Part shown: piece after piece, positions 8,914 through 64,000 of the stretch | How the letters are laid out: every line of letters starts with the position of its first letter | Numbering within the stretch: position 1 is the first letter of the stretch | NCBI GenBank assembly: GCA_963709505.1 | Contig: CAVPXC010000012.1 | Location: 93,356-157,355, forward strand | Direction: 5' to 3' | From: an uncultured Chloroflexia bacterium | GTDB lineage: Bacteria > Chloroflexota > Anaerolineae > JAAEKA01 | DNA length: 64,000 nucleotides | Translations under genes and position numbers: made by a program | The notes under the pieces: model-generated | Databases searched by the model: none | What the model was told of the DNA's origin: nothing | Seen by the model: only the letters and a program-made list of their open reading frames with translations

Positions 8914-11033
8914 CTATTTGCCAACCAGAATGACAACCGAGCGATCGCCGACGAGCAGTCCGTGTTGATCCGAAAGCAACGGCTCGTTGCCGGGTTCCCA
9001 GATATCTTCGGGGGACGGTGCACCTGTGTTGGCGAAGACATGCCATTGCATGCCGGACGGCAATCCTGGCAACTCGCACCACTGGCCTTCCCAGTGCATG
9101 TTCATCGCCACATAGACGTAGTTATCCTGGACTGCGCCGCCTCTGGCGTGCTTACCGCACAGCATGAAAGGCAGCCAGGCGGTTGTCATCGGACCAGTTG
9201 GCGTTCCAGGCTTTGGTTCCATGCCAGGTGATGTCGGCGTAGCCGCTGCCTACATAGTCGCGGTTGCTGAAATGCCAACGGTTGCGCAACACCGGATGGG
9301 CGTGACGGAAGGCAATCACGTGCTTGAAGAAGCGGAACAGCTCGGCGTTGCTCTCCAGCTGCGTCCAGTCCATCCAGTTCAGCTCGTTGTCTTGGCAGTA
9401 GGTGTTGTTATTGCCCTGCTGAGTACGGCCGACTTCATCACCCATCAGGATCATCGGCACCCCCTGGCTGACCATCAGCATGGACACGGCGTTCTTGATC
9501 TGCCGCCGGCGCAGGGCATTGATGCCTGGATCGTCTGTGGGACCTTCCCAGCCGCAGTTCCAGCTATCGTTGTCGTTGCCGCCGTCGTTGTTGTTCTCGC
9601 CGTTGGCCCAGTTGTGCTTTTCGTTGTAAGACACCAGGTCCATCAGCGTAAAGCCATCGTGGGCTATGAAGAAGTTGACCGAGGCGGTCGCGCCGCGGCC
9701 GGCGTACAGATCGGGCGAGCCGGTCAATCGCTGCGCCACCTGACTCACCAGGCCAGCTTCGCCCTTCAGGAATTTGCGCATGGTGTCGCGATACTTGCCG
9801 TTCCATTCGCCCCAGCGGAAGTAAGCTGGGAAACTGCCAACCTGGTACAAGCCGCCGGCGTCCCACGCCTCGGCGATCAGCTTGCATTTGGCAAGCACCG
9901 GGTCGAAGGCCAGCGTCTCGAGCAACGGTGGGTTTGGCAGCGGATAGCCCAACGGATCGCGGCCCAGGATGGCGGCCAGGTCGAAGCGGAAGCCGTCGAT
10001 GTGGTACTCCGCCGCCCAGTAACGCAGGCAATCCAGCACCATGCCGCGCACGATGGGGTTGTTGCAATTCAACGTGTTGCCGGTGCCGCTGAAGTTGAAG
10101 TAGTAGCCATCCGGCGTCAGCATGTAGTAAACGCGGTTGTCCAGCCCTCGAAACGAGATGTAGGGTCCCATCTCGTTGCCTTCGGCCGTATGGTTGAACA
10201 CCACATCCAGGAATACCTCGATGCCCGCCCGATGAAGCTCTTTGACCAGGTGCTTGAACTCGTCGACCTGCATGCCCAGCTTGCCGGTCGCCGCATAGCC
10301 GGCCTTGGGAGCGAAGAAGCCGACCGTGCTGTAGCCCCAGTACTGCATCAGCAGCTGGCCGGTTGCCTCATTGACGCGACTGTTCTCGAACTCGTCAAAC
10401 TCATAGACAGGCAGCAACTCGATGCAATTGACACCCAACTCCTTGAGGTAGGAGATCTTCTGGCGCAATCCGGCAAAAGTGCCCGGGAACTTGACATCCG
10501 ACGATGGATGCTTGGTAAACCCGCGCACGTGCGCCTCGTAGATCACCAAATCCTCGGCCGGAATCTCCAGCGGACGGTCGCACTTCCCAATCGAAGTCGT
10601 CGAGCACCAAGCGCGAGCGGTGCTGGTAGATGTCGTTCCAGTCTGGCTCCTTACCCCACACGTCGCGGCCGCCCAGGGCCTTGGCATAGGGATCGCTCAA
10701 GATCTTCGTCGAGTTGAAGCGATCGCCCGACCTGGGGTCGAACGGCCCATCCATGCGATAGCCGTACTCGATTTCTTCATAGTCAAGACCGTAGACCACC
10801 ATCGACCAGACGTCGCCGATGCGGAACTCCTCAGGAAAGGGGATCTCGATCCTGGGCTGGGGCGCGCCTTTGTCAAACAACACCAGGGTGCACGACGTAG
10901 CGTGGCTCGAATAAATCGAGAAGTTCGCGCCGCCGGGAACCATGGTGGCGCCAAAGGGAATCGGCTTACCGGGCCGCAGCCGGTAGCCCTGGTATTCGTG
11001 GGTAGAGTAAGTATCGATACGTAACGGATCCAT
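8914..11033 (-). pseudogene. glgX: glycogen debranching enzyme GlgX (CBM48 + GH13 isoamylase type), interrupted by two apparent single-base insertions
   Basis: Three overlapping ORFs in different frames: 10401..11033 (CBM48 N-domain), 9152..10687 (GH13 core with GFRFDLAAILGRD and VFNHTAEGNE) and 8914..9222 (C-terminal domain). The junctions are DFDWE|GDRPLEIPAEDLVIYEAHVRGF near 10600 and RLAAF|MLCGKHARGG near 9171. Confidence 0.8.
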
Positions 11034-11044
11034 TACGGCGCCTC

Positions 11045-11386
11045 TCAGTCAGCCAACGCGGCCAGGCCAGCGTCAAGTGTGTCGAAGTACTGGAAGAAGT
11101 CCAGAAAGCCGGTCATTTCCATGGTGTCGCGCAGGTCATCGGGCAGCCTGACAAGCACCACCTCGCCGCCGTTGCCCTTGATGGTGCGATAGATCACCAA
11201 CAGCAGGCGCAGGCCGGCGCTGGACATGTACGTGACGCCGCCCATGTCGATGGCGATCTTGCAATCCGGCTTGGCCAATGGCATGATCTTGGCTTGAGCC
11301 TCAGGCGCCGTACTGCCGTCGATGTCACCTACGATGTGCACGACAGTCGCGAGGTCGATTATTTCAATGTCGATGTTCAGGGCCAT
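11045..11386 (-). CDS. STAS-domain anti-sigma factor antagonist (second copy)
   Basis: 113 aa. Sequence VVHIVGDIDGSTAPEAQAKI...AIDMGGVTYMSSAGLRLLLV. Confidence 0.8.
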   Translation of the reverse strand: MALNIDIEIIDLATVVHIVGDIDGSTAPEAQAKIMPLAKPDCKIAIDMGGVTYMSSAGLRLLLVIYRTIKGNGGEVVLVRLPDDLRDTMEMTGFLDFFQYFDTLDAGLAALAD

Positions 11387-11448
11387 GGTTTGTACCTACC
11401 TGTTTTCCTTTATGCCTTCTCAGTCGCCGGGGACTGAGGCTGAGCGTT

Positions 11449-14613: not shown

Positions 14614-14676
14614 TTGGTATCGAACTGAGTGAGCCTCACTGTTTACTGTTCACTGTCTACCTACTGTTCACTGTAC
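14583..14676. repeat. heptamer-repeat hairpin element (GAACAGT/GTGAACA arrays)
   Basis: gaacagtgaacagtaatggtaatcag ... cactgtttactgttcactgtctacctactgttcactgtac. Confidence 0.7.
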
Positions 14677-15070
14677 TACCCGTTCAGCTGCGCCATCAAG
14701 CCAGCCTGGTCCCACACGTCCCACAACTCGGCAATCTTGCCGTCCTTGACGTGGAAGATCGTGATGCCGATCATCTTCACGCTCTTGTTTGTGGGGGGCA
14801 TGCCGAAGAAGTCGCCGGTGTGCGTTCCGGCGGCCGACCAGCGGCTGACGACCTTCTCGCCTTGGGTGAGCTGATCTTCCACCGTATAGTGCAGGTCGGG
14901 AAAAGCCGTCAGCAACAGGCCCACAAAGCCTTTGCCGATGTCACGGTGCGGGATCGTGTCGGTGTTGACGTGGCCGACGTAAGTCTCGGCCATGGCGTCG
15001 TTCCACAGGTCAGGTTATTCTCGTTGTACACCTGGTAGAACGTGTTGATTGGATCCATAATGTTCGACAT
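14676..15070 (-). CDS. SnoaL-like ester cyclase (NTF2 fold), with an apparent -1 frameshift near 15008
   Basis: The N-terminus MSNIMDPINTFYQVYNENN (AAGGAGA ribosome-binding site) is in one frame and the remainder DLWNDAMAETYVGHVNTDT...ELWDVWDQAGLMAQL is in another. One missing base in aacctg(g)acctg would restore NLDLW. Confidence 0.6.
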
Positions 15071-16332: not shown

Positions 16333-17871
16333 TTACGTTACTACGCCGCCAAAATCATCTCGGCCGCCTTCGCAGCCGATCATGAAGCAGGCGGCCACGG
16401 TGTTACCGCTGGTGACGGTCGGCATGACCGAGGCGTCGGCGACGCGCAGGCCCTCGACGCCGTAGACGCGCAGCTGCGGGTCCACAACGGCCATCGCATC
16501 CCGGCCGATCTTGCACGTGCCAGCCGGGTGCCACAGGGTCGAGCCCTGCGAGCGGATAAAGCCCTCCAGGTCCGCACCGGCGCCGGGCAGGATCTCAACC
16601 TCGTTGAGGTCGCTAAAGGCCGGCGTGTTGGCGATGGCGCGGATCACCTCGATCACCTTGACGAAGGCCTCAACGTCGGCGGGCTGCTGCAGGTAGTTGG
16701 GGTTGATCGAAGGCGGCGCTAACGGGTCGGCCGAGCGCAACGTCACCTCGCCGATGCTGAAGGGCTGCACCAGGATCGGCAGGAAGATACAGGCCGCAAA
16801 AGGTATGTTCAGAAGCGGCGCCAGCGGCGCGGGAATGCTGGGCGTGAAGTTGAGCTGCATGTCCGGCGGCGCCGCCTCGGCTCCCTCGCGGGTGCGCAGG
16901 AAGAGCACGTTGCCGGTCAAGCAGCGTGGTCATGGGCGAGTCGGTCTTGCGCTTGAAGACCACGGGCAGTTGCACGTGGTCCTGCAGGTTCTGGCCCACA
17001 CCCGGCAAGTCGGCGACGACGTCAATGCCATGCGGCGGCCAGGTGGTCGGCCGGGCCGATGCCCGGACAGCATCAACACCTTGGGCGACTGCAACGCGCC
17101 GGCGCTGACGATTACCTCACGGCTGGCCTGGGCCTGCTTCAGCTCGCCACCCTGGAGGTATTCGACGCCTACGGCCTTCTTGCCTTCGAAAAGGACGCGC
17201 GTGGCGTGCGCGCCGGTCTCCACGGTCAGGTTGGGCCGGTCCAGGATCGGGGTCAGAAAGACCGTGGCTGCGCTGGCGCGCTTGCCGTCGGGGCTGATGT
17301 GAAACTGCAGCAAGCCGGCGCCGTTTTCCTGTCGCGCGCCGTTGGTGTCCCAACGCGGACCGTCGTAGCCGACTTGGGTGGCGCCGACCATAAACTCGTC
17401 TGACACCATCACCGGATCGGGGCAATCGACTACAGGAATCGGCCCGCCGGCGCCGTGATACTCCGAATCGCCGCCCGCGTAATCCTCCAGCGACTTGAAG
17501 ATCGGCAGGACGTCCTTGTAGCTCCAGCCATCGGCGCCGAGAGCGTTCCACATGTCGTAGTTGAGCCGATTGCCGCGCACGTACATCATGGCGTTGACGG
17601 AGGTGCTGCCACCCAACACCTTGCCCTGGTTAATGATCAGACTGCGGCCGGCCATGCCCGCCTGTGCCTCGGTGCCGAGCGCCCAGTCGACGTCCGAGCC
17701 CCACAGCGACACAAAACTGCCTACATCGGCGATTGCTGGGTTCGTGTCGGAGCCGCCGGCTTCAAGCACCAGCACACGCATAGCTGGATTGGCGCTGAGA
17801 CGGTTGGCAACCACGGCGCCGGAGGCGCCGCTGCCGATAACGATGAAGTCAAAAGACTGGTGGGAGGTCAT
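16333..17871 (-). pseudogene. GMC-family (choline dehydrogenase-like) FAD oxidoreductase, disrupted by three single-base insertions within ~130 bp
   Basis: N-terminal FAD motif FDFIVIGSGASGAVVANRLS and C-terminal motif HPAGTCKIG...GLRVADASVMP. The three frame switches are LMLSG|IGPADHLAA|HGIDVVADLPGVGQNLQDHVQLPVVFK...TTLL|TGNVLFL, at about 17025, 16990 and 16915. Confidence 0.8.
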
Positions 17872-19196: not shown

Positions 19197-19818
19197 CTAA
19201 TCTCCTTGTTTGCCAAAATGATCGAGCAGTGTCTGCAAGATGATCGGGTACTGCCCGCCGTTGAAATGATGCGCGCCCGGCACGACGACCACGGAGGCGC
19301 TCAACTTGTCTTGCCACGCGGTGCGGTTGGCTCGCCAGTCTGATGTGTGCGGATCGTTGTCGGATATCATGACCACGATCTGCCGGCCGGCCGCTGTCTT
19401 GGCCCGCTCCAGGTCGAACGGCGTGTTGATCCAGGGCATCAGGCTGTCCCAGGGCGCATCGGTCCAGAACCAGCCGGCCACGCAGAGCGTGCCGTCAACG
19501 TGAACGCCTTCCGGCAGCTCGGCCAACGCACGCAGGACTGCCTGGCATCCCACGCTGTGCCCGACGATCACAGTCCGGGCGATTTCGTCGGGATCAGAAC
19601 CGAGCACCTGCATGACCCTTCCGACCCAAGCCGAAATAGTTGGCTCGCCCGGGTTGGGCATGGCAGACACCACGACCGGATCGAAAGGCAGCGGAAGGTC
19701 TCGATACGGCGGCGGACCGCCTACTCGACCGACGGATTCAGCTCCGCTGCAGCCAGGGATACCAGTCGCTTGCCGGCGTGCCGGACCAGCGCGGGATGAC
19801 GATCAGACGCTTGCTCAT
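19197..19818 (-). CDS. RBBP9/YdeN-like serine hydrolase (alpha/beta fold), with an apparent frameshift near 19700
   Basis: The N-terminus MSKRLIVIPRWSGTPASDWYPWLQREL ends at a stop. The remainder, in another frame, is PPYRDLPLPFDPVVVSAMPNPGEP...GHSVGCQ (GXSXG)...ISDNDPH. Confidence 0.65.
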
Positions 19819-21335: not shown

Positions 21336-22125
21336 TCAGCGAGCGTTGGCGGGCAAGACGCCCTCCAGCGTGCCAACGAGCTGCAGCGACACCTGGCCGC
21401 CTTGCAGCAACATCACATCATAAACGGTGCGCACTCCCAGGCTGCCGCCCGCCGTGGCCTCGAACCAGACGTAGTCGTCATCGCCGGTAATGTTGCGCAT
21501 GAATACCAGATGGAATCCACTCTCCGTTTCGAACTTGTGACGGAAGAACGAGCGCAGGGCCTCGCCGCCTTCGACTGAAAGCTTACCCGTGACAAGACGA
21601 GCGTCGGCGGTGAAGAAGTCGTCGGCCATGCCGTCGGTATCCTGGCGAGCCTGGTAGTCGATGTAGCGATGGTGCACCCGTTGAGCATCTTCGTTGACCG
21701 GCGGGACAAAGCCCGCAAAGTCGCCAGGCTGCCACACGCTGCCCTGCTTCGAGCCGTAGAGCTGCAGGTAGACCTGACCGTGGCGCAGGAACTTCATCTC
21801 ATATGGCTCGATCAGGCCGGCTGGGCTGTCGATCACAAGCTCCTGCCAGATGAAGTCACGCCCGGCGACGAGCTGCTGGACCCGGACAGGGCCGAAGCCG
21901 GCCAGTCGCTCCGTCATCAGCTCGATCACACCTTTGACGGCCGGCCGGCCTTCGGCGCGGAAAGTTAAAGCCATGCAGACGGGCGTCCTCGGTGTACAGA
22001 TCGCGCACCAATCCATCCAGATCGCCGCGCTGCGCGTACGCCATCCGTCGCGCCTGATAGGCCTGGGCCTGTTCGACGCTGGCGGGATCGCCGACAATCA
22101 TGGGGGCAATGCGGTCGTCTGTCAT
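21336..22125 (-). CDS. tandem NTF2-like (SnoaL_2) two-domain protein, with an apparent single-base insertion near 21965
   Basis: MTDDRIAPMIVGDPASVEQAQAY...LYTEDARLHGFNF in one frame continues as RAEGRPAVKGVIELMTERL... in another. An extra c in tttccgc explains the shift. Confidence 0.6.
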
Positions 22126-22150: not shown

Positions 22151-23462
22151 CTAACCAGGTGGCGGCGGCGCAATGCCAAGCTGCTGGAGCAGGCCCAGCT
22201 CGTCCACGTTGGCCCAGCGCTCGACAATCTTGCCGTCGCGCATGCGCACGGTGGTGATGCCGCTGAAGTGCAGCTCTTTGCCGCTGGGCGGCATGCCCAT
22301 TACGCCACCGGTGTCCGTGCCAACGAGGTGCCAGCGGTGCACGACCTTATCGCCGGCGTAAACCTCGTCGTCGATGGTCAGCTTGATGTTGGGCATCGCA
22401 CTGCGGAACATGGAGACGATCGCAAGGAAGCTGGCGCTGCCTTTCTCGGTCTTGGGCTTGCCGCCAACCGTCGAGTGGTCGTCCGCATCGGACGCGATCA
22501 GCGTGTCGAGCACGCCGAAGTCGCCCTTGTTCCACACCGAGTTCGAAGAAGCGCACGGCAATAGCGTTGTTTTCTTCGGGAGTGAACTGGCGCGCGGACG
22601 GACGGCCGGCCGTCATCTGAGTGGTCAGGCCAAGCTGATTGGCAACCACGTGGATGGCGCGGATCTTGCCGCCCCAGAACTCGAAGAAGTCAATGCCATA
22701 CTCGTCAACCTGGCTTCCGGACGGTTGAACGCCGTTGAACTCGCCAACGTGCTGGCCGGTGATACGCCAGCGTAGGGCTGCCTTGTTGTCGCCGGCAAAC
22801 TCGCGCACGACCTCGAATTTGAGGTTGGCGAACGCCTGGCGGAGGTAGCTAACGTAGCCGCGCAGCGCCTCTTTGCCGGAGAGCGACGGCATGGTGGGCA
22901 AGCTGAACTGAAAGTCGTCGGCGAGGATCTCGTCCATAGCTGAGAAGCGCCCCTTGTTGAGCAGCTCGTCGAAGAAGCGGCGAGCCGTTGCCAGGTTCTG
23001 CTCCGGCGTAGTTGCGGTCCGAGGGCTAGGCATGACGCCAAGCTGCTGGAACATGCCAATGGTGTCCTCGTGGCCGATGACCTCGACGATCTTGCCGTCC
23101 TTGATCCGGTGCCAACTCATGCCGTCGATCTCGAAGTAACGGCCGCTGGGCGGGACGTCGCCGGCGACGGTGTGGATGGCGCCGCCCAAATGCGTGCCGC
23201 CGCCGCGCCACCTGGTCACCACCATATCGCCCGACGCCACCATGTCCTTGGCGTGGATGTAGAAGTCGGGAAAACACCCATGCAGCATGGTCACAAGATC
23301 CTTGAAACCGTCCGGGCCTACGTACGGCTCAGGATGCGTCGGCAGGGTAAAGACGAAATCAGGCGTCAGCAGCTCGTACAGGGTGCCGAGATTGCCATCC
23401 GTCATGATCTCCTTAAAGTAGCGCATCGCGATGTACTTGTTCTGGGTTTCCGACATGCTCAC
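22151..23462 (-). CDS. three tandem SnoaL-like ester cyclase domains in one reading frame (third domain shifted by one inserted base near 22578)
   Basis: Domain 1 runs MSMSETQNKYIAMRYFKEI...GMFQQLGVMP. Domain 2 runs PEQNLATARRFFDELLNKGRF...VVANQLGLTTQ. Domain 3 runs MTAGRPSARQFTPEENNAIAVRFF(N)SVWNKGDFGVLD...LGLLQQLG. There is no stop between the domains. Confidence 0.6.
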
Positions 23463-24699: not shown

Positions 24700-24800
24700 G
24701 ATAGATTGGTAGATTGGTAGATTGGTCGTAGAACGATACTGGCGAGTCCGCGTTGCCTTTCCCACCAATCTACCAGTTTACCAATCTACCAACCTACTGC
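24700..24800. repeat. octamer-repeat hairpin element (GATTGGTA / TACCAATC)
   Basis: gatagattggtagattggtagattggtcg ... ccaccaatctaccagtttaccaatctaccaacc. Confidence 0.75.
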
Positions 24801-47059: not shown

Positions 47060-47633
47060 ATGCTAAACTTCGATCCCGTAAGTAAAGAAGAAATCACCAT
47101 CGACCAGCTTTGCGCGATGCTTACCGTCGCCGATCTGCGTCAACTGACCGACGAAATGATCGACGCCATGCTCGACCTGATCGCCGGCTGCACGGATGCG
47201 GATGTCACATTTGTTCCTGATGACCCTAGGGCCGAGGATACGTTCGCAACGGATCCCGACGAAGCCAGCTTGGCCTGGACCCTCGGCCACGTGATCGTGC
47301 ACGCCACCGCATCGTCGGAAGAGGCGGCGTTTCTGGCAGCTGAGCTAGGGCGCGGCGTACCCGCACGCGAGGACCGATCTCGCTATGAAGTCCCCTGGCG
47401 CACGATGACAACCACGGAACAGTGCCGCCTGCGGCTGGAGGAAAGCCGGCGTATGCGCGTAGCAAGCTTGGAGTTGTGGCCGGATCCACCCCATCTCGAC
47501 AACACATTTAAGGCCTGGTACGGCGACCAACGCTACAACGCTGATCGTACGTTTCGTGTTCGGCCTACGACACGACGACAGCCACCTGGGACAGATTGCG
47601 GAGATCGTGCGGCAGGCGAGAGCGGGGAGATGA
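47060..47633 (+). CDS. DinB/YfiT-like (DinB_2) metal-dependent hydrolase-fold protein, with an apparent frameshift near 47545
   Basis: After ...[11 protein letters not shown] the +1 frame gives the expected C-terminus [30 protein letters not shown]. The annotated frame continues as unrelated residues. Conserved His in [11 protein letters not shown]. Confidence 0.55.
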
Positions 47634-47711: not shown

Positions 47712-48680
47712 ATGAAGGCACATGGCGTTATGATGATAAGCGTGCGACCTGTTGATCCTGCTGCCGACTTGGCACGCATTGCCGAGTTGACCAATGCCGT
47801 GCATCCAAACTCGGAGACAGAGGAACTGCTGCGAGAAGATCTTAGCGCGCCAGATGGACGGGCGCTTTATGCGGAGTTTGGTCGCCAGTGTGCCGGACGA
47901 ACCGGTTGCGGGCTATGCGCTGGTAGATCACGTTCCCTGGCAGCCCGCAGGCCGGTTTTGGCTGTGGGTCACTACAGATATCCGTTGGCGCGGCCAAGGT
48001 ATCGGTTCGATGTTGTTTGCACGAGCGCTTACGCTAGCCACCGAACAGCGTGCCGCTATTCTCGCTACTCAAGTGCGGGATGACCAACCTGAAAGCCTCG
48101 CATTTGCCGAACGCCGCAACTTCCACGTCGAGCGGCACATCTTTGAATCCGTGATCGACCTATCGATCTTCGACCAGAGTCGATTCACGGGCTTAATAGA
48201 AGATATAGAGGCCACCGGTATCCGGTTCTTTTCCCTGGGCGACGCAGGTAATACGCGGGAGGCCTTGCGCGCGCTGTGGGAGGTCAACTACCGCGTCTGT
48301 ACTCGACGACCCGGCATCCACGGGGAGCTTTTCCTCCTTCGAGGATTTCAGCCAAGTCGTGGGCCAGGCCTCCTGGTTCGACCCTTCGGGCCAGATCATG
48401 GCCGCCGACGGCGAGACGATTGTTGGTCTCGGTGCGGTTGGGTATTTCCCGGAGAACTCGTAGCGCCAGGAATATGATCACCGGCGTCGAGCGCGCCTAC
48501 CGAGGGCGTCACATCGCGTTGGCGCTGAAGCTCCTTGGTATTCGCTACGCGAAAGCCAGGGGTGCGCTCACGATCCGCACCAACAACGACTCGCAAAACG
48601 TGCCTATGCTTGCCGTCAACCGCAAGCTGGGCTACCGACCCGAACCGGGTATATACCGGCTAATCAGACAATTCGCCTAG
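47712..48680 (+). pseudogene. tandem-GNAT N-acetyltransferase, split across three frames (at least 3 indels near 47870, 48300 and 48465)
   Basis: Domain 1 runs VAGYALVDHVPWQPAGRFWLWVTTDIRWRGQGIGSMLFARAL. Domain 2 runs in two further frames: ...FEDFSQVVGQASWFDPSGQIMAADGETIVGLGAVGYFPENS* and then NMITGVERAYRGRHIALALKLLGIRYAKARG. Confidence 0.65.
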
Positions 48681-51218: not shown

Positions 51219-51879
51219 TCAGCGGTAGACTATTTCCCGCTGCCATTGGCCTTGCGGTTCACAGTGCAGCTGCCAATAGACGTCAGCTATCCGGTCGGGA
51301 TCAAACAAAGTACCTGGCTGAACCATGCCGGCAATGGTCACGGTCGCCACGTGAATGCCTGCCGGCTCCAGCTCAGCGGCCAGACTGAAGACCAAGTTGC
51401 GCAGACCGGCCTTGCCCACGGCTAAGGCAGCCGCTTGCGGCCATGGATTGAGCGCCAACCCACCTCCGGTGAACAGCATCGTTCCGGCCCCTGCCGTCCG
51501 CATCTGGGGAAACACCTGCTGGGAGGCAACCAACGCCCCGACCACATTGGAGCGAAAGGCCTCGACCAACTGCTCGCCATCCAACGTCGAGGGAGCGCCC
51601 GGAGCGTTTGCGGCGACGTTGTAGACCAGGACCGCTGTCGGGCCCAGATGGTTGGTGATACGCTCAAACGCTCCGCGCAAGGATTGGGCTTCGCCGGCAT
51701 CGGCGGCAAAGCCAAAGGAACTCGACGCCGCCAGCGGAGAGCTCTGCCTGATAATCTGCCAGAGCTTCCTCGCGCCGGGCAATCAATGCGACCCGAAAGC
51801 CTTCTCGACCAAAACGCCGGGCTACGGCCAGGCTGACGCCCGGTCCTGCACCGACGATAGTGCATAGTTTGGTGTTCAT
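51219..51879 (-). CDS. SDR-family oxidoreductase, with an apparent frameshift near 51750
   Basis: The N-terminus MNTKLCTIVGAGPGVSLAVARRFGREGFRVALIARREEALADYQAEL (ORF 51664..51879) continues in another frame (ORF 51219..51782) with ...VYNVAANAP... Confidence 0.6.
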
Positions 51880-53724: not shown

Positions 53725-54570
53725 TCACTGCCCCAGCTCTGCAAACAAATCATCCATCACCAAACTCTTCTGCTCCACCGGCCAGGCCAACGCATAGGCC
53801 TCGCGGCTCAGCATCTGCTTGAGCGCATCGTCGGGCAGCTTGCGGAAGAAGCTGTCAGAGCCGAACTGGGTCGCGTGGCACATAAGCGCCGCAAACTTCG
53901 CTTCGACCTGTTCGGCAACGTCGATGACGGCGTCTACCTGATCGTCGGGCCAGCCGAGCTCGCCTTTGTCGATCCGCTCTTGCCAGCCGCCGGCATCTTC
54001 GCCCAGAGAGACCATGCGATCGCGCATTTCCAGAAAGAAGGAGCGGGGAATCACTTGATAAAACAAGCGGCTGGCGTGCCAGGCCTTACCCTGCTCGAGA
54101 AACTGCGACGCGTCAGCAGCGGCGTGAAAGGCCGCCACGGTGTGCCTATGGATGGCCAGATGATCGGGATGGCCATAGCCGCCGTTTGGCTCGAACGTCA
54201 GCACCACCTGCGGCTGCAGCCGGCGGATGATACCCACCAGCCGCGCCACGACCTCGTCGGTGGGGGCGTTGATGTAGGCGCGGGGGTCTTCGTTTTCCGG
54301 CGTGCCAACCATTCCAGAATCGCGATAGTCGAGGAAGATCAGCTCCTGCACACCAAGCATGCCGGCCGCGCAGCGCAGCTCGTCCTGCCGCACCTGCCAG
54401 AGGGTTTCGGGCGTCGCCAGAGCCGAGTCGGCGATCTCGCCCACGTCGCCGTTGGTAGCGCAGACCAGCGCGGTCAGTGTGCCACGGGCAGCGTAATGCG
54501 CCAGGGTCCCGCCGGAACCGAAGGCCTCGTCGTCGGGATGGGCAAAAAGAGCGAGAAGTGTCTTAGTCAC
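53725..54570 (-). CDS. PIG-L/LmbE-family N-acetylglucosaminyl deacetylase (MshB/BshB-like)
   Basis: Hallmark LALFAHPDDEAFGSGGTLA and a downstream His-rich HPDH. Confidence 0.8.
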   Translation of the reverse strand: MTKTLLALFAHPDDEAFGSGGTLAHYAARGTLTALVCATNGDVGEIADSALATPETLWQVRQDELRCAAGMLGVQELIFLDYRDSGMVGTPENEDPRAYINAPTDEVVARLVGIIRRLQPQVVLTFEPNGGYGHPDHLAIHRHTVAAFHAAADASQFLEQGKAWHASRLFYQVIPRSFFLEMRDRMVSLGEDAGGWQERIDKGELGWPDDQVDAVIDVAEQVEAKFAALMCHATQFGSDSFFRKLPDDALKQMLSREAYALAWPVEQKSLVMDDLFAELGQ

Positions 54571-54976
54571 GAGCTGGTTCCTGTTCTTTCAGACTAACGG
54601 CTGCATAGATTTCGCCAAGAAAGCGACTGGGCTTGGTACCGAGCAAGCGGGTGTCGGCAAAGCCGCACCGCAGCGCCAGATCCTGCCACGTCCCGAACGA
54701 TAGCGGATGCGGCACCCATGTGTTACCGCGATTGGCGCCGTACTCCACCAGGATCAACCGGCCGCCTGGCTTGAGATAGCGATGAACGAGCTGCACGATA
54801 GGCTCCTTGCTGCGATGGAAGTGCAACGAGTTAGCCATGATTGTACCGTCCAACGGGGGCAGCGGGAGCCAGCGAGTGAAGTCGGCGGTAAAACTCCGCC
54901 CGGCGCGATCACCCCACCTCGCAGCAAAGTCACATGATCGGTATGGTCCATAACGGATCGATGGCCTTGCAGCCAT
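54563..54976 (-). pseudogene. class I SAM-dependent methyltransferase remnant (only the C-terminal half recognisable)
   Basis: Sequence LHFHRSKEPIVQLVHRYLKPGGRLILVEY resembles the post-motif-II/III region. No Gly-rich motif I upstream. Pieces occur in two frames. Confidence 0.35.
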
Positions 54977-55763: not shown

Positions 55764-58700
55764 TCATGAAACGCAGACAGAGCCAAGCAACAGGCCCCCG
55801 AAGTGACGTGCTCTTCGGGGGCCTGTTGCCGCTGCAGAGTATTTACACGTGCCGTCGCCGCGTTGCTCAGCGCGCCGGCCAGTAACGCCAGCAGCGCCAG
55901 CAGTGTTCCGGCCAACGGCAGGGCAGGGACGACGGCAGGAGTTCGCCTGGATACCGCTCAACGTCACAGCGGTCGGCCCGGTGTAGACCACGCTGACCGG
56001 CCCGTGCCGCGTCGCCACGCCGCTGTTGTCGACATCCTCGACCCAGTAGAAGTAAGACGTGCCGGGAACCAGGTCGGTACGGTCGTCCCAGGTGTAGATG
56101 AAGCCGCCGGGGTTGCCCTGCGACTGCGAGGGAATCAGCGTCTCGTTCAACTGCCGATCCGGCCCCCCATCCGACGTGCCGCGGTAGAGGTTGAAGCCGC
56201 GGTTGTTCAGCTCGGTGTTGGTTTCCCAAGTCAGCAGAACGGCATCGCCTTGCTGCACTGCACTGAAGTCGGCCAGGGTTACTGCCAACGGGCTAAAAGT
56301 AAGCTTGTAGTCCTCGGCTTCGCCCGCTGTGGCCGCGCCGAAGGCCGTCGGCGTTGCCTGCGGCCCTGCCGCGCCGCCCTCCGCACCCGCCAGCGGATAG
56401 CTGATGCCCGTGCAGCCGTTGCTGCCGTCGCGCGCAGTCAGGCGGAAGCGGAAACGGTAGGTGTTGGAACCCGCCCCGAGCAGTCCGGTCGGCGCACTGA
56501 ACGTGATGTTGTTGACGCCGTTCACCAGGGGCGCATTCTGGATCACCCGCTCGGAGATACCGCCGTAGCTATCGCCGAAATCGCCGTCCGAGCCCCCAGG
56601 CGCCGCCGGGCCGACGCCCGTGCCGTCCGTGAAGTCCATCCAGGCGTCCAAACAACTGGCGCCCGAAGCCGTCACATTGAACGCGCCCGTGCCGCCTCCC
56701 CAGTTGCCGTTGCCGGCCAACGCCACCCCGTCGTCCGAGACGTTGTCGCCATCCTCGACAAAGCTGGCGTCAGCCGTCCAGCCGGAGCCCAGTCGCAGCG
56801 CGCCGCTGCCCGTGTGCCAGGCGACACCGTAGGAAGCCGCTAGATCGCTGTAATCGGCGGAGGAGGCAATCGAGGCGCCGCAGATTGTCAGACTCCAAGA
56901 TGAGAGGGTACCGGTGTCGCTTATCGCATCGTCCACCACTCGCAGTGTCCACGTGCCGTTTGCCGCCTTGCCATCCAAGCCGCTCAACAGGCCTTCGGGT
57001 TTGAAGCTACCGGTGAAGGGTGCCGTACCCGCCGTGATAGAAGTCGCCGCTTCGTCGTCGAATACGGTGTTCACATAGTTGTCACCGCTGCTGCCGTTGT
57101 CCGTCGACAACTCTACTGCAGTCGTGTCAGGATGCAGAATGTGGATGTCCAGATCCTCATCCCAGGTATGGGTAAGTTGGCCGATGGTGATGTTCACATC
57201 TGTGATGGTTCCACCACCGCTGGGCACATTGACGACGGAGGTCGTCGTGCCAAGCGTGCCGCTAGGGGGCACCGCCTTGGGCACGTCGGTGCTGACGTAG
57301 GTAGTACAGCTCACTGCTGCTGTGCGGAACGCAAAGAGGGTCGAAACGCGGTTCCCGCAGGCATTGACCGCATACACGCGCCAGTAATGCACTGTGTCGG
57401 CGGCCAACGCCGAAGATGTCCAGCTTGTGGAGGTCAATCCGGTCGCCAACGCCACAATGTTCGCAAACGTCGGATCGGTCGCCACCTGGATGTCGTAGCT
57501 GGTCGCGCCTGCCACCGCGCCCCAGGTGAAGGTCGGGTTCGTGGCGCCGCCGGTACTGCCGTTAGCCGGCGCAGTAAGGGCCGGCGCAGCAGCCAGCGGA
57601 GTCGAGACATTCAGCGTGGCACTGGCCTGGTGGGTCAGGCTGCCCGCCGTGCCGGTGACGGTGATGTTGGTCGCGCCTGCGCCTGCGCCGCTGACGGTCA
57701 GCGTGCTGCTGCCCGGCGGGGCGACGGGGTTGGGGCTGAAGGATGCGGTGGGACCAGTCGGGCTAAGGGCCGCACTCAGGCTAACGGCGCTGCTGAACCC
57801 ACCGACGCTCCCGACCGTCACGTTCACCGTGGCGTTGCTGCCCTGGCAGATGGTCTGGTTGGCCGGCGCGGCAGCGATGGTGAAATCAGACACGTTGCAC
57901 GATGGGAACTTGAAGGTGCCGATGCGCGTATACCAGTTATATGCGCCGCTGGTCTGCGCGTACTCCTGGGTGTACCAAAAGGTGCAGTCGTCGGAGGGGT
58001 CGACTTGCATGGCGCTGTAATCGCCCCAGCGGTTATTGGAGTCGTTTTGGTAGCCGCCACCCGTGACGAGGGTGGCCTCGTTCTGGGGCAGGGTGCCTAG
58101 CGTGTCGGCCGCCAAACGGCCGACGTACCGGATGCTGGGGTAGAGACTGACGTTGTCGGTGATGCTGTAGCCCAACGCCATGTTGCCGGCGCCGTCCATG
58201 GCAATGCTGCCCATCCAGCGGCTGGTCGAGGTGGTGTCGGCCGGCCCGTAGACCCCCTGCTGGTTGATCGCCCAGGCGCTGCCGGTGTTGCGCAGCTCGA
58301 ACCAGTGGATGCCAGCCCGGCCGGCCGGGCTGTTGGTATCCACGGTGTGGTTACTGACCAGCGTCTGGTAGCTGCCGAAGTTGCGGTACTGGAGACGGTG
58401 CATCAGCCGGTCGGCGAGATCATCCAGCATCACGCTCGTCCCCGGCTGGTCGATGCAGGCGGGTGAAGCGGCGCACAGGGTGGGGTCGACGTTCGTCGTG
58501 TTGAGCGTATAGGTCGGCACGAAAGGCGAACCGGCAGTCCCGAAATAGGAGTTGGCCGGCGCCGTCCAGTCGACGTGGAAATTCCAGATGCGCAGCGCGT
58601 CGCTGGGTCCAATATTGGCCGAGTCGTCCCACTCAGCGAAGAGACTAGGCGCGCCGCTTGGCGGCTGGGTTGCCCCCTCCCAGTCAGCCGGCAGCATCCC

Positions 58701-59684
58701 GCCATAGGCGGAGTTGTAGGAGTAACCGTTGAAGTACTGAACTGACGCCGCGGCGCCGGTCAACATTGCGGAGCGTTGGAAAGCGGCCACGCCCGCGCCA
58801 CGCCACGCCGTCCCGGCATCGTTGAACTGATTGACCGAAAGATAGTAGCCATCGGGCCACAGCCCAATTTTAGGATAGTCCGGGAAATAAGTATTGGGCC
58901 AGGTGTAGGAGTAACGGTACCAGCTCCCCGTCGGGTCGCCAGTCTGCGACACCGCGATACAGATCAGGTCCGAGCTCCCGTCGCCGACGGCGCCAAGGGC
59001 GAACTGCATCATGACCCAGCGGTCCGCCAGGTGATCGTAGAGCGTGACCGGGTCGCCGTCGTTATAGTCCTGGCACTTGCCGCCGAAGCCGCTCCACAGG
59101 GTGTTGCCGAGGGCCGGTCCGTAGAGCGACGTGCCGGTCTTGGTCCAGATCTGGAAGCGAACGTTGACCCACTGAATCTGATGGTCGGGTCCGACATCGC
59201 CTTGGGTGTCTGGTGGACGTACGGTATAGCCCACGTTGTTGATTCCAGCCCAGTTCTGGATCGGCAACGGCATGGCTGCCGGCCCATGCCAGTCCTGGTA
59301 CGAGGAATCGATCCCGCTGAAGCTGCCCTCCTTTTCATGGCCCGGCAGCAGCCCGAGTTCCCTGAACCGAATGAGGGTCGGGTCCGCCGGCGGAGCAGCA
59401 ATGGGCTCAATGTCGCGCAAGGGCGGCGAGACATCCATGTGGTCTGGCTGGATCACGACCACCCCGTCGGCCGCCGGCTTCACATCCGCCTCCTGGTTGA
59501 CCCTGCTCAGCCCTGCCGATGCGCCCGCCACGCTGAGTTGCCCGGCCTTCTGTCCGATGGCCGTTCGGCCGGCCGCACCTGACTGGGATACGCCGGGATG
59601 CATAGCGCCAGGCGGCGCAAAGGCCGCCAGGCCGATCCCTAACACCACCAAAGCGCCTACCAGACGATTCCAATGTGGTTTCAT
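55764..59684 (-). CDS. large secreted protein (about 1300 aa): signal peptide, ~700-aa N-terminal region of unknown fold, proprotein-convertase P-domain-like module, FN3 domain and the conserved C-terminal anchor module. The extreme C-terminus is apparently frameshifted near 55940.
   Basis: Signal peptide MKPHWNRLVGALVVLGIGLAAFA with a GGAGA ribosome-binding site. P-domain-like DLDIHILHPDTTAVELSTDNGSSGDNY...GTWTLRVVDDAISDTGTLSSWSLTICG. FN3 PTFTWGAVAGATSYDIQVATDPTF...VHYWRVYAVN. Module EDYKLTFSPLAVTLADFSAVQQGDAVLLTWETNTELNNRGFNLYRG...YFYWVEDVD...RHGPVSV..PTAVTLSGIQAN. The -1 frame continues TPAVVPALPLAGTLLALLALLAGAL, a hydrophobic anchor. Confidence 0.7.
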   Translation of the reverse strand: MKPHWNRLVGALVVLGIGLAAFAPPGAMHPGVSQSGAAGRTAIGQKAGQLSVAGASAGLSRVNQEADVKPAADGVVVIQPDHMDVSPPLRDIEPIAAPPADPTLIRFRELGLLPGHEKEGSFSGIDSSYQDWHGPAAMPLPIQNWAGINNVGYTVRPPDTQGDVGPDHQIQWVNVRFQIWTKTGTSLYGPALGNTLWSGFGGKCQDYNDGDPVTLYDHLADRWVMMQFALGAVGDGSSDLICIAVSQTGDPTGSWYRYSYTWPNTYFPDYPKIGLWPDGYYLSVNQFNDAGTAWRGAGVAAFQRSAMLTGAAASVQYFNGYSYNSAYGGMLPADWEGATQPPSGAPSLFAEWDDSANIGPSDALRIWNFHVDWTAPANSYFGTAGSPFVPTYTLNTTNVDPTLCAASPACIDQPGTSVMLDDLADRLMHRLQYRNFGSYQTLVSNHTVDTNSPAGRAGIHWFELRNTGSAWAINQQGVYGPADTTSTSRWMGSIAMDGAGNMALGYSITDNVSLYPSIRYVGRLAADTLGTLPQNEATLVTGGGYQNDSNNRWGDYSAMQVDPSDDCTFWYTQEYAQTSGAYNWYTRIGTFKFPSCNVSDFTIAAAPANQTICQGSNATVNVTVGSVGGFSSAVSLSAALSPTGPTASFSPNPVAPPGSSTLTVSGAGAGATNITVTGTAGSLTHQASATLNVSTPLAAAPALTAPANGSTGGATNPTFTWGAVAGATSYDIQVATDPTFANIVALATGLTSTSWTSSALAADTVHYWRVYAVNACGNRVSTLFAFRTAAVSCTTYVSTDVPKAVPPSGTLGTTTSVVNVPSGGGTITDVNITIGQLTHTWDEDLDIHILHPDTTAVELSTDNGSSGDNYVNTVFDDEAATSITAGTAPFTGSFKPEGLLSGLDGKAANGTWTLRVVDDAISDTGTLSSWSLTICGASIASSADYSDLAASYGVAWHTGSGALRLGSGWTADASFVEDGDNVSDDGVALAGNGNWGGGTGAFNVTASGASCLDAWMDFTDGTGVGPAAPGGSDGDFGDSYGGISERVIQNAPLVNGVNNITFSAPTGLLGAGSNTYRFRFRLTARDGSNGCTGISYPLAGAEGGAAGPQATPTAFGAATAGEAEDYKLTFSPLAVTLADFSAVQQGDAVLLTWETNTELNNRGFNLYRGTSDGGPDRQLNETLIPSQSQGNPGGFIYTWDDRTDLVPGTSYFYWVEDVDNSGVATRHGPVSVVYTGPTAVTLSGIQANSCRRPCPAVGRNTAGAAGVTGRRAEQRGDGTCKYSAAATGPRRARHFGGLLLGSVCVS
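55781..55817. terminator. 14-bp perfect stem (ACAGGCCCCCGAAG / CTTCGGGGGCCTGT) with a 9-nt loop between the convergent PIN toxin and secreted-protein genes. Candidate bidirectional terminator.
   Basis: Read directly from the sequence. Weak T-tract. Confidence 0.45.
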
Positions 59685-59832
59685 AGGTTGAATTCTCCAG
59701 TTTCTCTGAGCATATGAAGCGAACCGGCCATATGTCCACAGCGCCCATGGAAGCCTGACAAATGCCGCGCCGACCAAGGATGCCAGCAGCGCCCTGCCTG
59801 CTAACCAGGGGATTGACCGTGAAGAACAGAAG

Positions 59833-59857: not shown

Positions 59858-59910
59858 TCCCACGTGCCAGAAACCGGGCCTTTCCCTACAACCCGGTACG
59901 GAAAGATCGG

Positions 59911-61078
59911 CTATGCGCGGCGACGCAGCCGGCTCAGTCCCAGGGCTATGCCAGCGCTCACAGCGACCCACAGCCACGGCAACCTCACGGTCGCCGCCGG
60001 ACCAGCCTGTATCTCGCTCACCGTCACCGCCGTCGGCACGGTGTAGTCGACGCTCACCGGACCGTGCCTCGTCGCCGCGCCGTAGATGTTGACATCCTCG
60101 ACCCAGTAGAAGTACGACGCGCCAGGAACCAGTTCGGTGCGGTCTTCCCAGGTGTAGATGAAGCCGCCGGCGTTGCCCTGCGACTGCGACGGAATCAACG
60201 TCTCGTTCAACTGCCGGTCCCACCCCGCCGCCGACGTGCCGCGGTAGAGGTTGAAGCCGCGGTTGTTCAACTCGCTGTTGGTTTCCCAAGTTAGCAGGAC
60301 GGCGTCGCTCTGCTGCGTCGCGCTGAAGTCGGCCAGGGCAACGGCTAAGGTGCTGTTGCAGGGCAGAGCGCCAATGGTGCCGCCTCGGATAATGTCTGCC
60401 CCACAGATGGACTGTGTCCCAGGAGGATTGGGTATCTGGGAGACGTCATCCCAGTTTGTTCCTGTGTCATTGAGCGCTGTGAAGTCGCTGCAATCAAGGG
60501 TGTTCGCCCAAGAAATCGCTGCACCTTCGCCGTTGACCTCGCCCGTTTCGGGAACACTCGCGAAGTCGATCTGGGTAGCACCGCACGCCAGATACAGGTC
60601 GGTCCCACTGGAATTTGAGAAGAAGGTAGTGCCATTACTGACAAAGGACATGGTGAATTCACAACCTACGGCGCTGTTTAGCTCTGTGCTTGGAACACCA
60701 GCGGTGTTTCCCCCGCACAGTTGAATGCACGTCTTAGCTGAAATGCTAGAACTAGAGGGGAAGGAGTATGTCCACAAATCGGTGTTTCCTCCAATAGCTG
60801 TATTGCGAAAAGAGCAGCCATTGAGGTCAACGCTCTGCGGCAAGACGGTTGCAAATCTCGACAAATTCGCCGTCGCCGGGGTCGGCGCCGCACGTGTTGG
60901 GATTGTAAAGCAACTGCGAAAAGAAGAGATCGCCGGGTTGGGGCGTCACCGTAGGGGCCTTCGGAGACGCGCCAATTGCCGAGCCAGCCACGAAAAGCAA
61001 CAGCACCGACAGGAGAGGCAACGCCAATGAAGCCGGCTTGACACGGGTCGCGCTTTGTCGAGAGGCGGGCTGGTTCAT
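59911..61078 (-). CDS. secreted lamin-tail-domain (LTD) protein with the conserved C-terminal anchor module, with an apparent frameshift near 60840
   Basis: Signal peptide MNQPASRQSATRVKPASLALPLLSVLLLFVAGSAIGA. LTD start DLFFSQLLYNPNTCGADPGDGEFVEICN in one frame, continuing as SRFATVLPQSVDLNGCSF in another. C-terminus LADFSATQQSDAVLLTWETNSELNNRGFNLYRG...PTAVTVSEIQAGPAATVRLPWLWVAVSAGIALGLSRLRRRA*. Confidence 0.7.
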
Positions 61079-61370
61079 GGTATTCTTCCTTCCAGAGTCT
61101 CCAATAAGCTCGACCGTAAGCAGTGGCTTCCAATTTTCCGTTGCTGGTCGCCAGGTCGTTTTTAGTGCGACCGTTAGCTTGCCAGACACCTGTCTCATAT
61201 CTTGAACGGGGATATCTTCGTTCAGTGGCCTCAGCACGATACATCCACATTCGACATATCACGAAGTTCGGCTTCACACAAACCCACGCATTTTACGGGC
61301 AGCTTGCAGTTACCCCACGCCGCCAACTGGCGCCATTGGGGGTAACTGCGCTAGGCAAGAATGAACAAAG

Positions 61371-61400
61371 CGCCTGATCCTTAGTCGAGGGTCAGGCGCC
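61371..61400 (-). terminator. 11-bp stem hairpin (GCGCCTGATCC / GGGTCAGGCGC) followed on the minus strand by UUUGUUCAUUCUU, about 70 nt downstream of the 61472 stop
   Basis: Read directly from the sequence. Confidence 0.45.
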
Positions 61401-61471
61401 TTCGTTGTGCCACTCTTGGGTGACTTGCGGACACTGGACCAGTCTCCGATGGCTGGACCAGTCGCAGCAAC

Positions 61472-63003
61472 TTACCCGTTCTGGCGTCCCGCACGCCGGA
61501 AGAAGCGGCTAAGGGCCAGGGACAGCCCTGCGACCACTGCCGCCCACAGCCATGGCAACGGCTGTGCTGGCGCGCCGCCGGCCCGCAAGCCACTCAGTGT
61601 CACCGCGGTCGGCACAGTGTAGTTCACACTGACCGGCCCATACATCGTCGCCGCGCCGTTTATGTTGACATCCTCGACCCAGTAGTAGTAGGTCGAATCC
61701 GGCGTCAAATCGGCACGGTCTTCCCAAGTGTAGATGAAGCCGCCGGGGCTGCCTTGCGACTGCGACGGGATCAGCGCCTCGTTCAACTGCCGGTCCGGCG
61801 CGGCCGGTGAGACGCCGCGGTAGAGATTGAAGCCGCGGGTGTTCAGCTCACTATTGGTCTCCCAGGTCAACAGGACAGCGTCGCCCTGCTGGACAGCGCC
61901 AAATTCGGCTAGGGTCACGGCCAGAGGGCTGGCCGCGGAGAGGACGAATTGGGTGTTGGTGGCCGACAAACTCAGATTGCTTAACGTCACCGAACAGTTG
62001 AGCTGCCCCGACACGCACGCGCTGCGGGTGATCCCCACGAGGATCTTCGTCCAGGCACCAGTCCCGATCTTCGCCCAGACCCACAAACTGCTTGGGGTCT
62101 GGCCATTGAGCTCACCAAACGTATAGTAGAAGACGACTGATGACGCCGTGTCAGTAGTGGTTGGGTCAATGGCGTAGCAGCGCTTCACGGAAATCTGCGA
62201 CCCGGCCGCGGTCCAGTCCGAGCACGTCTGGTTACCGCTGATGTTCACGATGGTGCTGCCAAGGTTTGCACTAGCGTCCGTTGTGATGTTCACCCCGTAG
62301 TATTTGTTGGTGGAGATATTCAGGAAATTGTACAAGGTGTTGTTGGACGACAGCGTCTGGGTCTGTCGCAGAGCGCCGTTGTTCGTCACCGTGCCACCCA
62401 CGGTAAGAGCGAACGTATTGAGGTCGAGCGTGGCTGCGCTGCTCACGGACAGGTTCCCGGCCACGTCCGTCGCACGACTGAGATCCGTAGTACCGCCACT
62501 AACAATCAGGTTGTTGAAAGTGTCAAAAGCAGTATTGTTCGGTAAGGTGTTATTGGCGGTGGAGCTGCTACAGTGCCACTACCTTGGGTCCAAGTGCCAA
62601 TATTGGTGGCGGTAAAACTCCCAGCTTTCAAGGTTCCACCGCTTGTCATGTTAATGCTACCGGTCCTGGAACCATTTCCAAACGTTATCGCTCCAGAGAC
62701 CGTCACCTGAGAACCGGAGTTGAACGCGAGGATACCGCTGCCGGAGGCAGGCGTCGTGCCGCCTAGTTGGATGCTTGCGCAAACTGCATTTGAAACGTTA
62801 AGGGTTACGGTGGCCCCATTTTGGATCGTTACCGTGTCGCCAGCAACCGGCACATTGCCGCATGACCAGGTACCAGCGGTCCCCCAGTTACCGTTTGTCG
62901 TTGCCACACAACTGGCTGCCGCCGCGTGTTGTGGCGCGGCCACGAGGGCAAAACCCGCGACCAAAAGCGCCCCGAACACCATCAAGAACCATTTGGGTTT
63001 CAT
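61472..63003 (-). CDS. secreted beta-helix-like protein with the conserved C-terminal anchor module, with an apparent frameshift near 62560
   Basis: Signal peptide MKPKWFLMVFGALLVAGFALVAAP with a GGAAGGGA ribosome-binding site. The N-terminal ORF 62506..63096 ends at a stop and the downstream frame continues open (SSTANNTLPNNTAFDTFNNLIVSGGTTDLSRATDVAGNLSV...). C-terminus LAVTLAEFGAVQQGDAVLLTWETNSELNTRGFNLYRG...PTAVTLSGLRAGGAPAQPLPWLWAAVVAGLSLALSRFFRRAGRQNG*. Confidence 0.7.
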
Positions 63004-63092
63004 CGTTTCCCTTCCTTCCGCATGCTGAGTTGAGTGATTTCTCCTCAGTCGCATGGCTGGAACTGGCCCCACCATGCCCTTTACGCCTGAAG

Positions 63093-64000
63093 TCATAAGA
63101 TCCCTTGTTCACGTTTCATGCATTCTTCCTTTGCCCCAGGCTGGAACACGCCGACGATGGGGCCATCGGGGAGCGTTTGCTGCGGGCCGACCGCCAGCGT
63201 GGCAACCAGCAAGCACAACACCGGGCCTTTCGCAACAAGCCCGGTGTCGCCCACTTGCCACATCCTCTCACGCTGGTTCCGTGATATCGGCGCTGCACTG
63301 GTCGCACGCAGACTGGGCCAGTCTGGAGTATTACCGCGCCGTCGCAAGCGCCCGAGACCCACGGCTACTCCAGCGCCCACGGCCAACGCCAGCCAGGGCA
63401 GCGCACTGGCGGCTGCCGGGGTGGCGCTAATGCCGCTCAACGTCACCGCAGTCGGCGCCCCGAACGTCGCGCTCACCGGCCCGTGACGAGTTACCACGCC
63501 GTTGAGATCCACGTCCTCGATCCAGTAGTAGTAGGTCGAACCCGGCGTCAAGTCGGCACGGTCTTCCTAGGTGTAGGTGAAACCACCGGGGTTGCCCTGC
63601 GACTGCGACGGAATCAGCGTCTCGTTCAACTGCCGATCCGGCCCGGCTGGCGCCGTCCCGCGCCACAGGTTGAAGCCTCGGTTGTTCAGCTCGCTGTTAG
63701 TCTCCCAAGTCACCAAGACGTGGTCAGTGCGCGCCTCAGCTTGGAACATGGCGAGTGTCACAGCAAGCGGTCTGAAGTCCCAACGATAGTCCTCGACCTC
63801 ACCACCCTTCGACTGACCAACACCATTCGCGGCTCGCCCGTCGAACGCCAGTTGCGGTGTAAGAGGAACTTCGTCCGTGGGAAAGAGCCGAAAACGGCCA
63901 TAAAGCGTTCTATTGCCATCCGGTGGGAAGGTGCCAGCCGGAACATTGAAGGTAAAAACCTGGTTCAGCCCTGGGCCTACAGGCTGGTTGATGATCGCAT
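63093..64000 (-). pseudogene. fourth member of the secreted-protein family (5' end outside the window). The conserved module carries an in-frame TAG replacing a conserved Trp codon, and the C-terminus extends ~70 aa past the RRR tail.
   Basis: The frame reads ...EVEDYRWDFRPLAVTLAMFQAEARTDHVLVTWETNSELNNRGFNLWRG...GGFTYT*EDRADLTPGSTYYYWIEDVD...RHGPVSATFGAPTAVTLSGISATPAAASALPWLALAVGAGVAVGLGRLRRRG.... The paralogs have W at the * position (TGG to TAG, plus-strand cta at 63566..63568). Confidence 0.55.

Follow-up and report, generated by a model that had tools for sequence, protein, structure and literature searches.

The window analysed here is a stretch of 64,000 nucleotides (nt) of contig CAVPXC010000012.1 from an uncultured Chloroflexia bacterium, and this text concerns a set of its conserved genes that are split, for the most part, by insertions or deletions (indels) of a single base. 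The G+C content of the window is about 60%, its best protein matches are metagenome-assembled genomes (MAGs) of Anaerolineae/Chloroflexota, and Rfam and tRNA scans of it returned nothing. In a large protein collection, the window's proteins occur as NCBI and ENA entries, all of one contig of 260,626 bp. When frames were tracked through stop-to-stop open reading frames (ORFs), numerous same-strand frame switches were found, and consecutive parts of single Pfam profiles (GlgX, GMC, adh_short) were spread over different frames. The evidence that genes are split came from their frames, from the coordinates of matches on Pfam profiles and from alignments with intact orthologs, and by these means the lesions listed in an earlier interpretation of the bare letters (hereafter the sequence-only reading) were found to exist. 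Sixteen genes in the window are hit, by 23-25 single-base indels (17-18 insertions and six deletions), one nonsense codon and one deletion of about 160 nt, as follows:

8914..11033, minus strand: GlgX/isoamylase, read in three frames; 1-bp insertions at 9169 (TT to TTT) and 10582 (within GTGC, non-homopolymer)
14676..15070, minus strand: SnoaL-like cyclase; 1-bp deletion near 15014
16333..17871, minus strand: GMC oxidoreductase; four 1-bp insertions at 17064 (G), 17035 (C), 16921 (C) and 16372 (C)
19197..19818, minus strand: Ser_hydrolase (RBBP9/YdeN-like); at least one insertion, approximately at 19700-19745
21336..22125, minus strand: tandem NTF2/SnoaL_2 gene; 1-bp insertion at about 21965 (TT to TTT or C to CC)
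22151..23456, minus strand: triple SnoaL fusion; extra G between TTC and AAC, at about 22578
24794..26504, minus strand: thiamine diphosphate (ThDP)-dependent enzyme; extra A in the A5 run 26491-26495, four codons past the ATG
30928..37814, plus strand: giant secreted beta-helix/cadherin-type protein; one gene of about 2,296 aa, split into two ORFs of 1,112 aa
34177..34400, plus strand: 15-nt tandem array within the giant gene (GACTCCTGGAGCCCC, encoding DSWSP); about 15 units, four of them of 14 nt
47060..47633, plus strand: DinB_2 gene; 1-bp insertion (T) at 47542
47712..48680, plus strand: two-domain GNAT acetyltransferase; 1-bp insertions at 47842, 48296 and 48454
51219..51879, minus strand: second SDR gene; 1-bp insertion at about 51740
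54563..54976, minus strand: methyltransferase remnant; about 160 nt missing at about 54862-54893, from the N-terminal S-adenosylmethionine-binding part
55764..59777, minus strand: secreted protein S1 (ORF of 1,337 aa); frameshifted C-terminal anchor, with an insertion at about 55945 and possibly a second shift at about 55875 (positions approximate)
59911..61078, minus strand: secreted protein S2; 1-bp insertion at about 60840
61472..63003, minus strand: secreted protein S3; 1-bp deletion at about 62565
63567..63569, minus strand: nonsense codon in secreted protein S4; in-frame TAG

For comparison, the syntenic relatives L001, L002-L005, L086, L088, L091, L102, L172 and L173 were used, the closest of which are sister species (82-92% identity) and not members of the same population. 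In GlgX, the CBM48, alpha-amylase and ISOA_C domains each fall in a separate ORF according to Pfam, and alignment with the L086 ortholog (81.7% nucleotide identity) gave exactly two 1-bp gaps, at 10582 and 9169; after single-base edits the protein is 705 aa long, with 702-704 aa in relatives. The Pfam SnoaL match of the SnoaL-like cyclase begins only at profile position 17, and the gene is one base short, in net terms, of its counterparts in L001 and L086. The N and C domains of the GMC oxidoreductase likewise lie in different ORFs (Pfam), and a three-way alignment with L001 and L102 showed all four insertions to be unique to the window; the sequence-only reading had counted three, between 16915 and 17025, and had missed the one at 16372. 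The edited gene encodes 508 aa and its L001 ortholog 509 aa. The GMC genes of L002 and L088, considered as outgroups, were discarded as not orthologous (36% and <45% identity, respectively). The N-terminus of the Ser_hydrolase, MSKRLIVIPRWSGTPASDWYPWLQR, sits in another frame than the rest, whose Pfam match begins at profile position 35. A three-frame reading of the tandem NTF2/SnoaL_2 gene revealed a switch from frame f1 to frame f2, and the edited ORF has 262 aa, while the extra G in the triple SnoaL fusion was revealed by nucleotide alignment to a paralog at 20820-21272; that site, at about 22578, is read through in the L102 ortholog, and the edited ORF has 434 aa. In the ThDP-dependent enzyme, A4 instead of A5 would yield MADKTGRSAIIEQF, agreeing with the N-termini of eight relatives, which follow the pattern M-x-x-K/R-T/N-G-x-x-AI-I/L-EQF; the product of the internal ATG matches NCBIfam profiles only from position ~16.

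The DinB_2 profile (Pfam positions 3-92) is matched in the upstream frame of its gene only, and the insertion is unique to the window when compared with L172 and L173; the edited protein has 190 aa and that of L172 has 191 aa. The Pfam match of the GNAT acetyltransferase is in pieces, and all three of its insertions are again unique relative to L172 and L173. Their number had been called correctly in the sequence-only reading, with positions (about 47870, 48300 and 48465) that were approximate. Once edited to 321 aa, the protein aligns with intact homologs of 315-321 aa at 81-86% identity and 98-100% coverage. The lesion of the second SDR gene was placed by three-frame reading, positions 3-52 and 48-180 of the adh_short profile being matched in different frames; L173 retains only a 268-nt remnant of this gene and L172 lacks it, and its decay is probably real. 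From the methyltransferase, about 160-190 nt are missing that both L172 and L173 keep, and of the 181 residues of the L173 ortholog only 74-181 have a counterpart in the window ORF. What looked like 1-bp gaps in the C-terminal half of the methyltransferase gene was dismissed as alignment noise, as the protein aligns there in one frame. A PhdYeFM antitoxin/PIN toxin pair (55046-55756, plus strand), kept in L172, lies between the methyltransferase remnant and the genes for secreted proteins.

Four adjacent secreted proteins, S1-S4, are encoded at 55764-64000 on the minus strand. The 3.9-kb ORF of S1 had been taken for a clean one; its C-terminal tail is in fact frameshifted, as the L172 ortholog ends in ...MPLAGTLLVLVALLAVRRRL... 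and the window has that transmembrane segment in another frame only. Directly downstream of the S1 coding region, at 55800-55835, there is a perfect GC-rich hairpin (GGCCCCCGAAG…CTTCGGGGGCC), which is probably the S1 terminator; both the annotated and the shifted frames of S1 run through it, and this suggests that the true stop codon lies upstream. Three-frame reading showed a switch from f0 to f1 in S2 and from f1 to f0 in S3, the edited ORFs having 388 and 510 aa, respectively, and the TAG codon of S4 stands where nucleotide alignment places TGG (Trp) in the three paralogs. The four proteins have a common C-terminal module of about 110 aa with the motifs …LLTWETNSELNNRGFNLYRG…LIPSQSQG…GGFIYTWEDR…YYYWVEDV…HGPVSV…PTAVTLS, after which come a transmembrane helix and an RRR motif. 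The module gave no NCBIfam match in the regions scanned, and it appears to be a domain for sorting or anchoring that has not been described.

The two 3.3-kb ORFs at 30928..37814, regarded as clean in the sequence-only reading, proved to be halves of one gene of 6.9 kb. Both halves have collinear counterparts in homologs of 2,100-2,500 aa (in P0136, the first ORF ends at residue 1115 and the second starts at residue 1130), and the same locus of the sister species L173 holds a single gene of 2,225 aa in place of two ORFs. Three-frame reading and Tandem Repeats Finder (TRF) showed that each of the four 14-nt DSWSP units has a shortened C-run, i.e., that the array contains four 1-bp deletions; upon their reversal, the protein is 2,296 aa long, with 2,225-2,374 aa in relatives. 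All four lesions of the gene are thus inside the 224-nt array, and the other 6.7 kb are clean. Of the 171 C/G runs of at least three bases in the gene, 11 belong to the array. Together with a SARP regulator gene, the giant gene constitutes an insertion of about 11 kb (27500-38300) relative to the syntenic L102, where a DJ-1-like gene and an adenylate cyclase gene are only about 1.2 kb apart.

The spectrum of lesions is narrow. Insertions exceed deletions by about 3:1 among approximately 24 one-base indels, compared with a single nonsense codon and a single larger deletion in all broken genes. Eight insertions were placed by alignment to close orthologs or paralogs, or, in the case of the ThDP-dependent enzyme, by the start of the protein: four lie outside any run, three extend a run of one or two bases, and only one falls in a run of at least four (A4 to A5, ThDP-dependent enzyme). 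Four further insertions, placed against L172 and L173, likewise lie outside long runs. The claim that most lesions are insertions outside homopolymers is upheld by these data. No common motif was found when insertion sites were compared, CCWGG-type sites included. The lesions are dense at 8.9-27 kb, at 47.5-48.5 kb and in the 15-nt tandem repeat, and long stretches elsewhere are free of them.

The sequence-only reading had called for a comparison with related genomes, and all 11 indels that could be compared (two in GlgX, four in GMC, the SnoaL deletion, one in DinB and three in GNAT) turned out to be private to the window. The genes concerned are intact in L001, L002-L005, L086, L091 and L173, and the relatives come from at least seven independent assemblies. 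In wider collections, a metagenome scan with the aldo-keto reductase (AKR) of the window found only relatives of at most 72% identity and without synteny, and a genome scan with the ThDP-dependent enzyme, whose best matches were 77-78% identical, yielded the syntenic L102. This last is a nanopore-only MAG of the Microflora Danica project, assembled with Flye and polished in a single Medaka round (PMC12313526). Syntenic with 14.7-42 kb of the window, it carries its own, different 1-bp insertions in GMC (at least five private ones in this gene alone), the SnoaL triple fusion, the hydrolase and other genes. In about 8 kb of L172 (ENA ERZ25039459, contig_133442, a Flye-style name), private indels of 1-2 bp number about 18, and its genes for the cyclase, NmrA, GNAT, AKR and PIG-L are in fragments. 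L173, whose name is of SPAdes style, has essentially no private indels, and all of its genes are intact. Judged from these sequences, the burden of lesions follows the assembly and not the lineage.

The substitutions in multiply hit genes were compared with those in intact ones. On the branch leading to the window, GMC accumulated 20, 9 and 62 substitutions at codon positions 1, 2 and 3, and the intact L001 ortholog 19, 24 and 59. The ratio of changes at positions 1 and 2 to those at position 3 was 31:44 in GNAT and 123:219 in six intact neighbours pooled. At the level of these codon-position counts, there is no relaxed constraint in GMC, despite its four frameshifts, and the pattern in GNAT, with three, is not relaxed either. 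As background, ordinary substitution-to-indel ratios in mutation-accumulation data are 3-10:1, and at such ratios four neutral indels would be accompanied by 12-40 extra neutral changes per gene, with tens of additional substitutions at codon positions 1 and 2 and several stop codons expected. Moreover, spontaneous indels in bacteria concentrate in homopolymers, and decay is deletion-biased.

The lesions are present in the sequence, those that were checked are private to the window and absent from independently assembled sister species, the multiply hit GMC and GNAT are unrelaxed, and single-base reversals give back uninterrupted ORFs that are as long as those of the orthologs, collinear with them and terminated at the orthologous stop. 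The explanation we favour, with a probability of roughly 0.7, is that the lesions are mostly uncorrected consensus errors of long-read type, together with a few real ones. Most of the 1-bp indels would then be errors of an unpolished long-read (meta)genome consensus and not mutations of the organism; to be as patchy as observed, they would need local variation in coverage or polishing, and gene callers would consequently break up 15-16 conserved genes. Real decay of accessory DNA would explain a small minority of the lesions, namely the deletion of about 160 nt in the methyltransferase, the second SDR and possibly the change of TGG to TAG. The sequence-only reading had left the choice between decaying genes and error-prone reads undecided; errors are now better supported for the 1-bp indels, because these are private, come without substitutions indicative of relaxed constraint in GMC and GNAT and have similar counterparts in relatives of long-read style, and decay accounts only for the minority. 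The technical origin of the indels is what we infer from the assembled sequences. Private 1-bp indels that split conserved genes and are reversible by single-base edits, enrichment in a tandem repeat, which is a classic site of consensus errors, and the comparable symptom in L102 and L172 are all features of the present case that resemble consensus errors of nanopore or PacBio continuous long reads; the differences are that insertions outside homopolymers prevail here, nanopore errors being commonly described as wrong homopolymer lengths, and that the lesions are distributed very patchily. Fragmentation of gene calls by indels in long-read consensus, especially below about 40x coverage, is documented (PMC9262707), and IDEEL-type length tests reveal such errors, which polishing or tools such as proovframe can correct (PMC9262707; bioRxiv 10.1101/2021.08.23.457338).

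Several findings weigh against this explanation. Artefacts would be expected at a roughly even density whatever the function of the gene, and the distribution found is uneven: long ORFs amounting to about 27 kb carry no lesions, comprising 1-8.9 kb, the cyclase and SARP ORFs (rightly described as clean before), the halves of the giant gene outside its array, and the genes from AKR to PIG-L. The clustering of lesions, which the sequence-only reading had called odd, does exceed chance (five gaps of at most 150 bp, Monte Carlo P=0.004), but most of the excess comes from the repeat array and the three close insertions in GMC, and with the repeat cluster removed P rises to 0.07. A tandem repeat, which is a hot spot of consensus errors, accounts for part of the odd clustering. 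Textbook nanopore errors are deletions in homopolymers, and the insertion bias and non-homopolymer contexts seen here differ from them. The collections searched held no independent assembly of the same species, and the clusters containing the cyclase and the GNAT fragments had a single member each. Real decay is present in the same region: the methyltransferase has its deletion, the second SDR survives in relatives as a remnant at most, and the TAG codon may belong here too. Finally, GlgX has 51 window-specific amino-acid changes compared with 21 specific to L086, an approximately 2.4-fold difference; the intact controls gave 61 and 44. In this relative-rate test the GlgX excess pointed to faster evolution of the protein in the window and fits with some relaxation, but it is not significant against the controls.

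Should the indels be real, accessory gene clusters would have been inactivated very recently by mostly +1 frameshifts, with decay only beginning, and we regard this as unlikely. It would account for the confinement of the lesions to patches of accessory-type genes next to long intact ones, and it draws on the bona fide decay nearby (the methyltransferase, the SDR that is a remnant in L173 and absent from L172, and the TGG to TAG change) as well as on the amino-acid changes in GlgX. Pseudogenes that accumulate under relaxed selection, e.g., in host-restricted or recently niche-shifted lineages, resemble the present case in that frameshifted accessory genes stand beside intact ones and that at least three lesions (the ~160-nt deletion, the gene remnant in relatives and the nonsense codon) are decay-like. 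They typically display, however, a mixture of nonsense codons, larger deletions and insertion sequence hits, with a deletion bias and a raised ratio of nonsynonymous to synonymous substitution, whereas nearly all lesions here are 1-bp indels with an insertion bias and the multiply hit GMC and GNAT are unrelaxed. One nonsense codon against some 24 indels, the prevalence of insertions outside homopolymers, and the lack of excess first- and second-position substitutions in GMC and GNAT all speak against decay, as does the concentration of four 1-bp deletions in 224 nt of a gene whose other 6.7 kb have none. The same symptom also arose independently in L102 and L172, both of long-read style, and not in L173.

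A variant of this idea is that the insertions are real and stem from a very recent, insertion-biased burst of frameshifts, e.g., by patchy error-prone repair, which preceded any substitutional trace. Its targets would include the SnoaL/NTF2-GMC-ThDP cluster and the secreted-protein family in an uncultured Chloroflexota lineage. We find such a burst still less probable than the onset of ordinary decay.

It is very doubtful that the DSWSP repeat of the giant gene is a contingency locus which, by phase variation, toggles the protein between fused and split forms. The frame is indeed lost within a tandem repeat, and the 14-nt units occur as two adjacent pairs with a higher-order period of 73 nt (TRF), which could mean that short units were duplicated as DNA. 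The repeat unit of 15 nt, however, is divisible by three, so that slippage by whole units cannot shift the frame, and the short C3-C4 runs are not hypermutable tracts; the array has neither a unit that is not a multiple of three nor a long homopolymer. Homologs and the sister-species ortholog are single ORFs, and identical contexts are also prone to repeated systematic consensus errors.

The weakest alternative, that the split genes are functional by virtue of programmed ribosomal frameshifting or transcriptional slippage, would fit the downstream frames that remain open and the one lesion in a short A5 run, but is hardly credible given that the contexts are heterogeneous and mostly not runs, that they offer neither a conserved slippery motif nor a long homopolymer (A5 is much shorter than the long A/T runs that support slippage), and that orthologs encode the same proteins in a single frame.

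Two further properties of the window were observed. The genes at 12186-27482 on the minus strand form a conserved syntenic cluster, common to several Chloroflexota relatives (L001, L002-L005, L088 and L102). It comprises at least ten SnoaL/NTF2-like genes (single, double and triple fusions) and the GMC oxidoreductase, as well as a benzoylformate-decarboxylase-like ThDP-dependent enzyme, two DJ-1/PfpI genes, a glyoxalase and an AGE epimerase. Besides, nearly every intergenic spacer contains tandem arrays of 7-8-nt units arranged as inverted pairs, e.g., (GCAGGTG)x12.6 followed by (CACCTGC)x6, at the following positions:

14024-14138: inverted tandem arrays
15691-15796: inverted tandem arrays
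16235-16336: inverted tandem arrays
18699-18767: inverted tandem arrays
20728-20805: inverted tandem arrays
24221-24293: inverted tandem arrays
24702-24797: inverted tandem arrays
28317-28399: inverted tandem arrays
30565-30703: inverted tandem arrays
42795-42875: inverted tandem arrays
49849-49945: inverted tandem arrays
53699-53730: inverted tandem arrays

The hairpins formed by these arrays are very stable (-37 to -102 kcal/mol, z-scores from -7.9 to -9.6). The sequence of the unit varies from site to site, and L001, L172 and L173 have arrays in the same spacers, built of other units. Heptamer repeats between genes have been reported from cyanobacteria and Beggiatoaceae (PMC4679880, PMC4692102).

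Real indels would point to an unusual, insertion-biased mutational process and would capture the very first step in the decay of an accessory island, which the evidence does not favour. Uncritical use of L102:12797-19830 and L172:1-18861, both laden with private 1-bp indels, as references is unwise. Under the preferred explanation by consensus errors, the lesions are above all a warning about data quality, and the genes called on this contig and in its bin, the number of pseudogenes and the pathways deduced from them would be unreliable until the sequence is polished. About 15 genes of the window would then be wrongly annotated as pseudogenes or fragments, among them the 2,296-aa surface protein and members of the conserved SnoaL-rich cluster.

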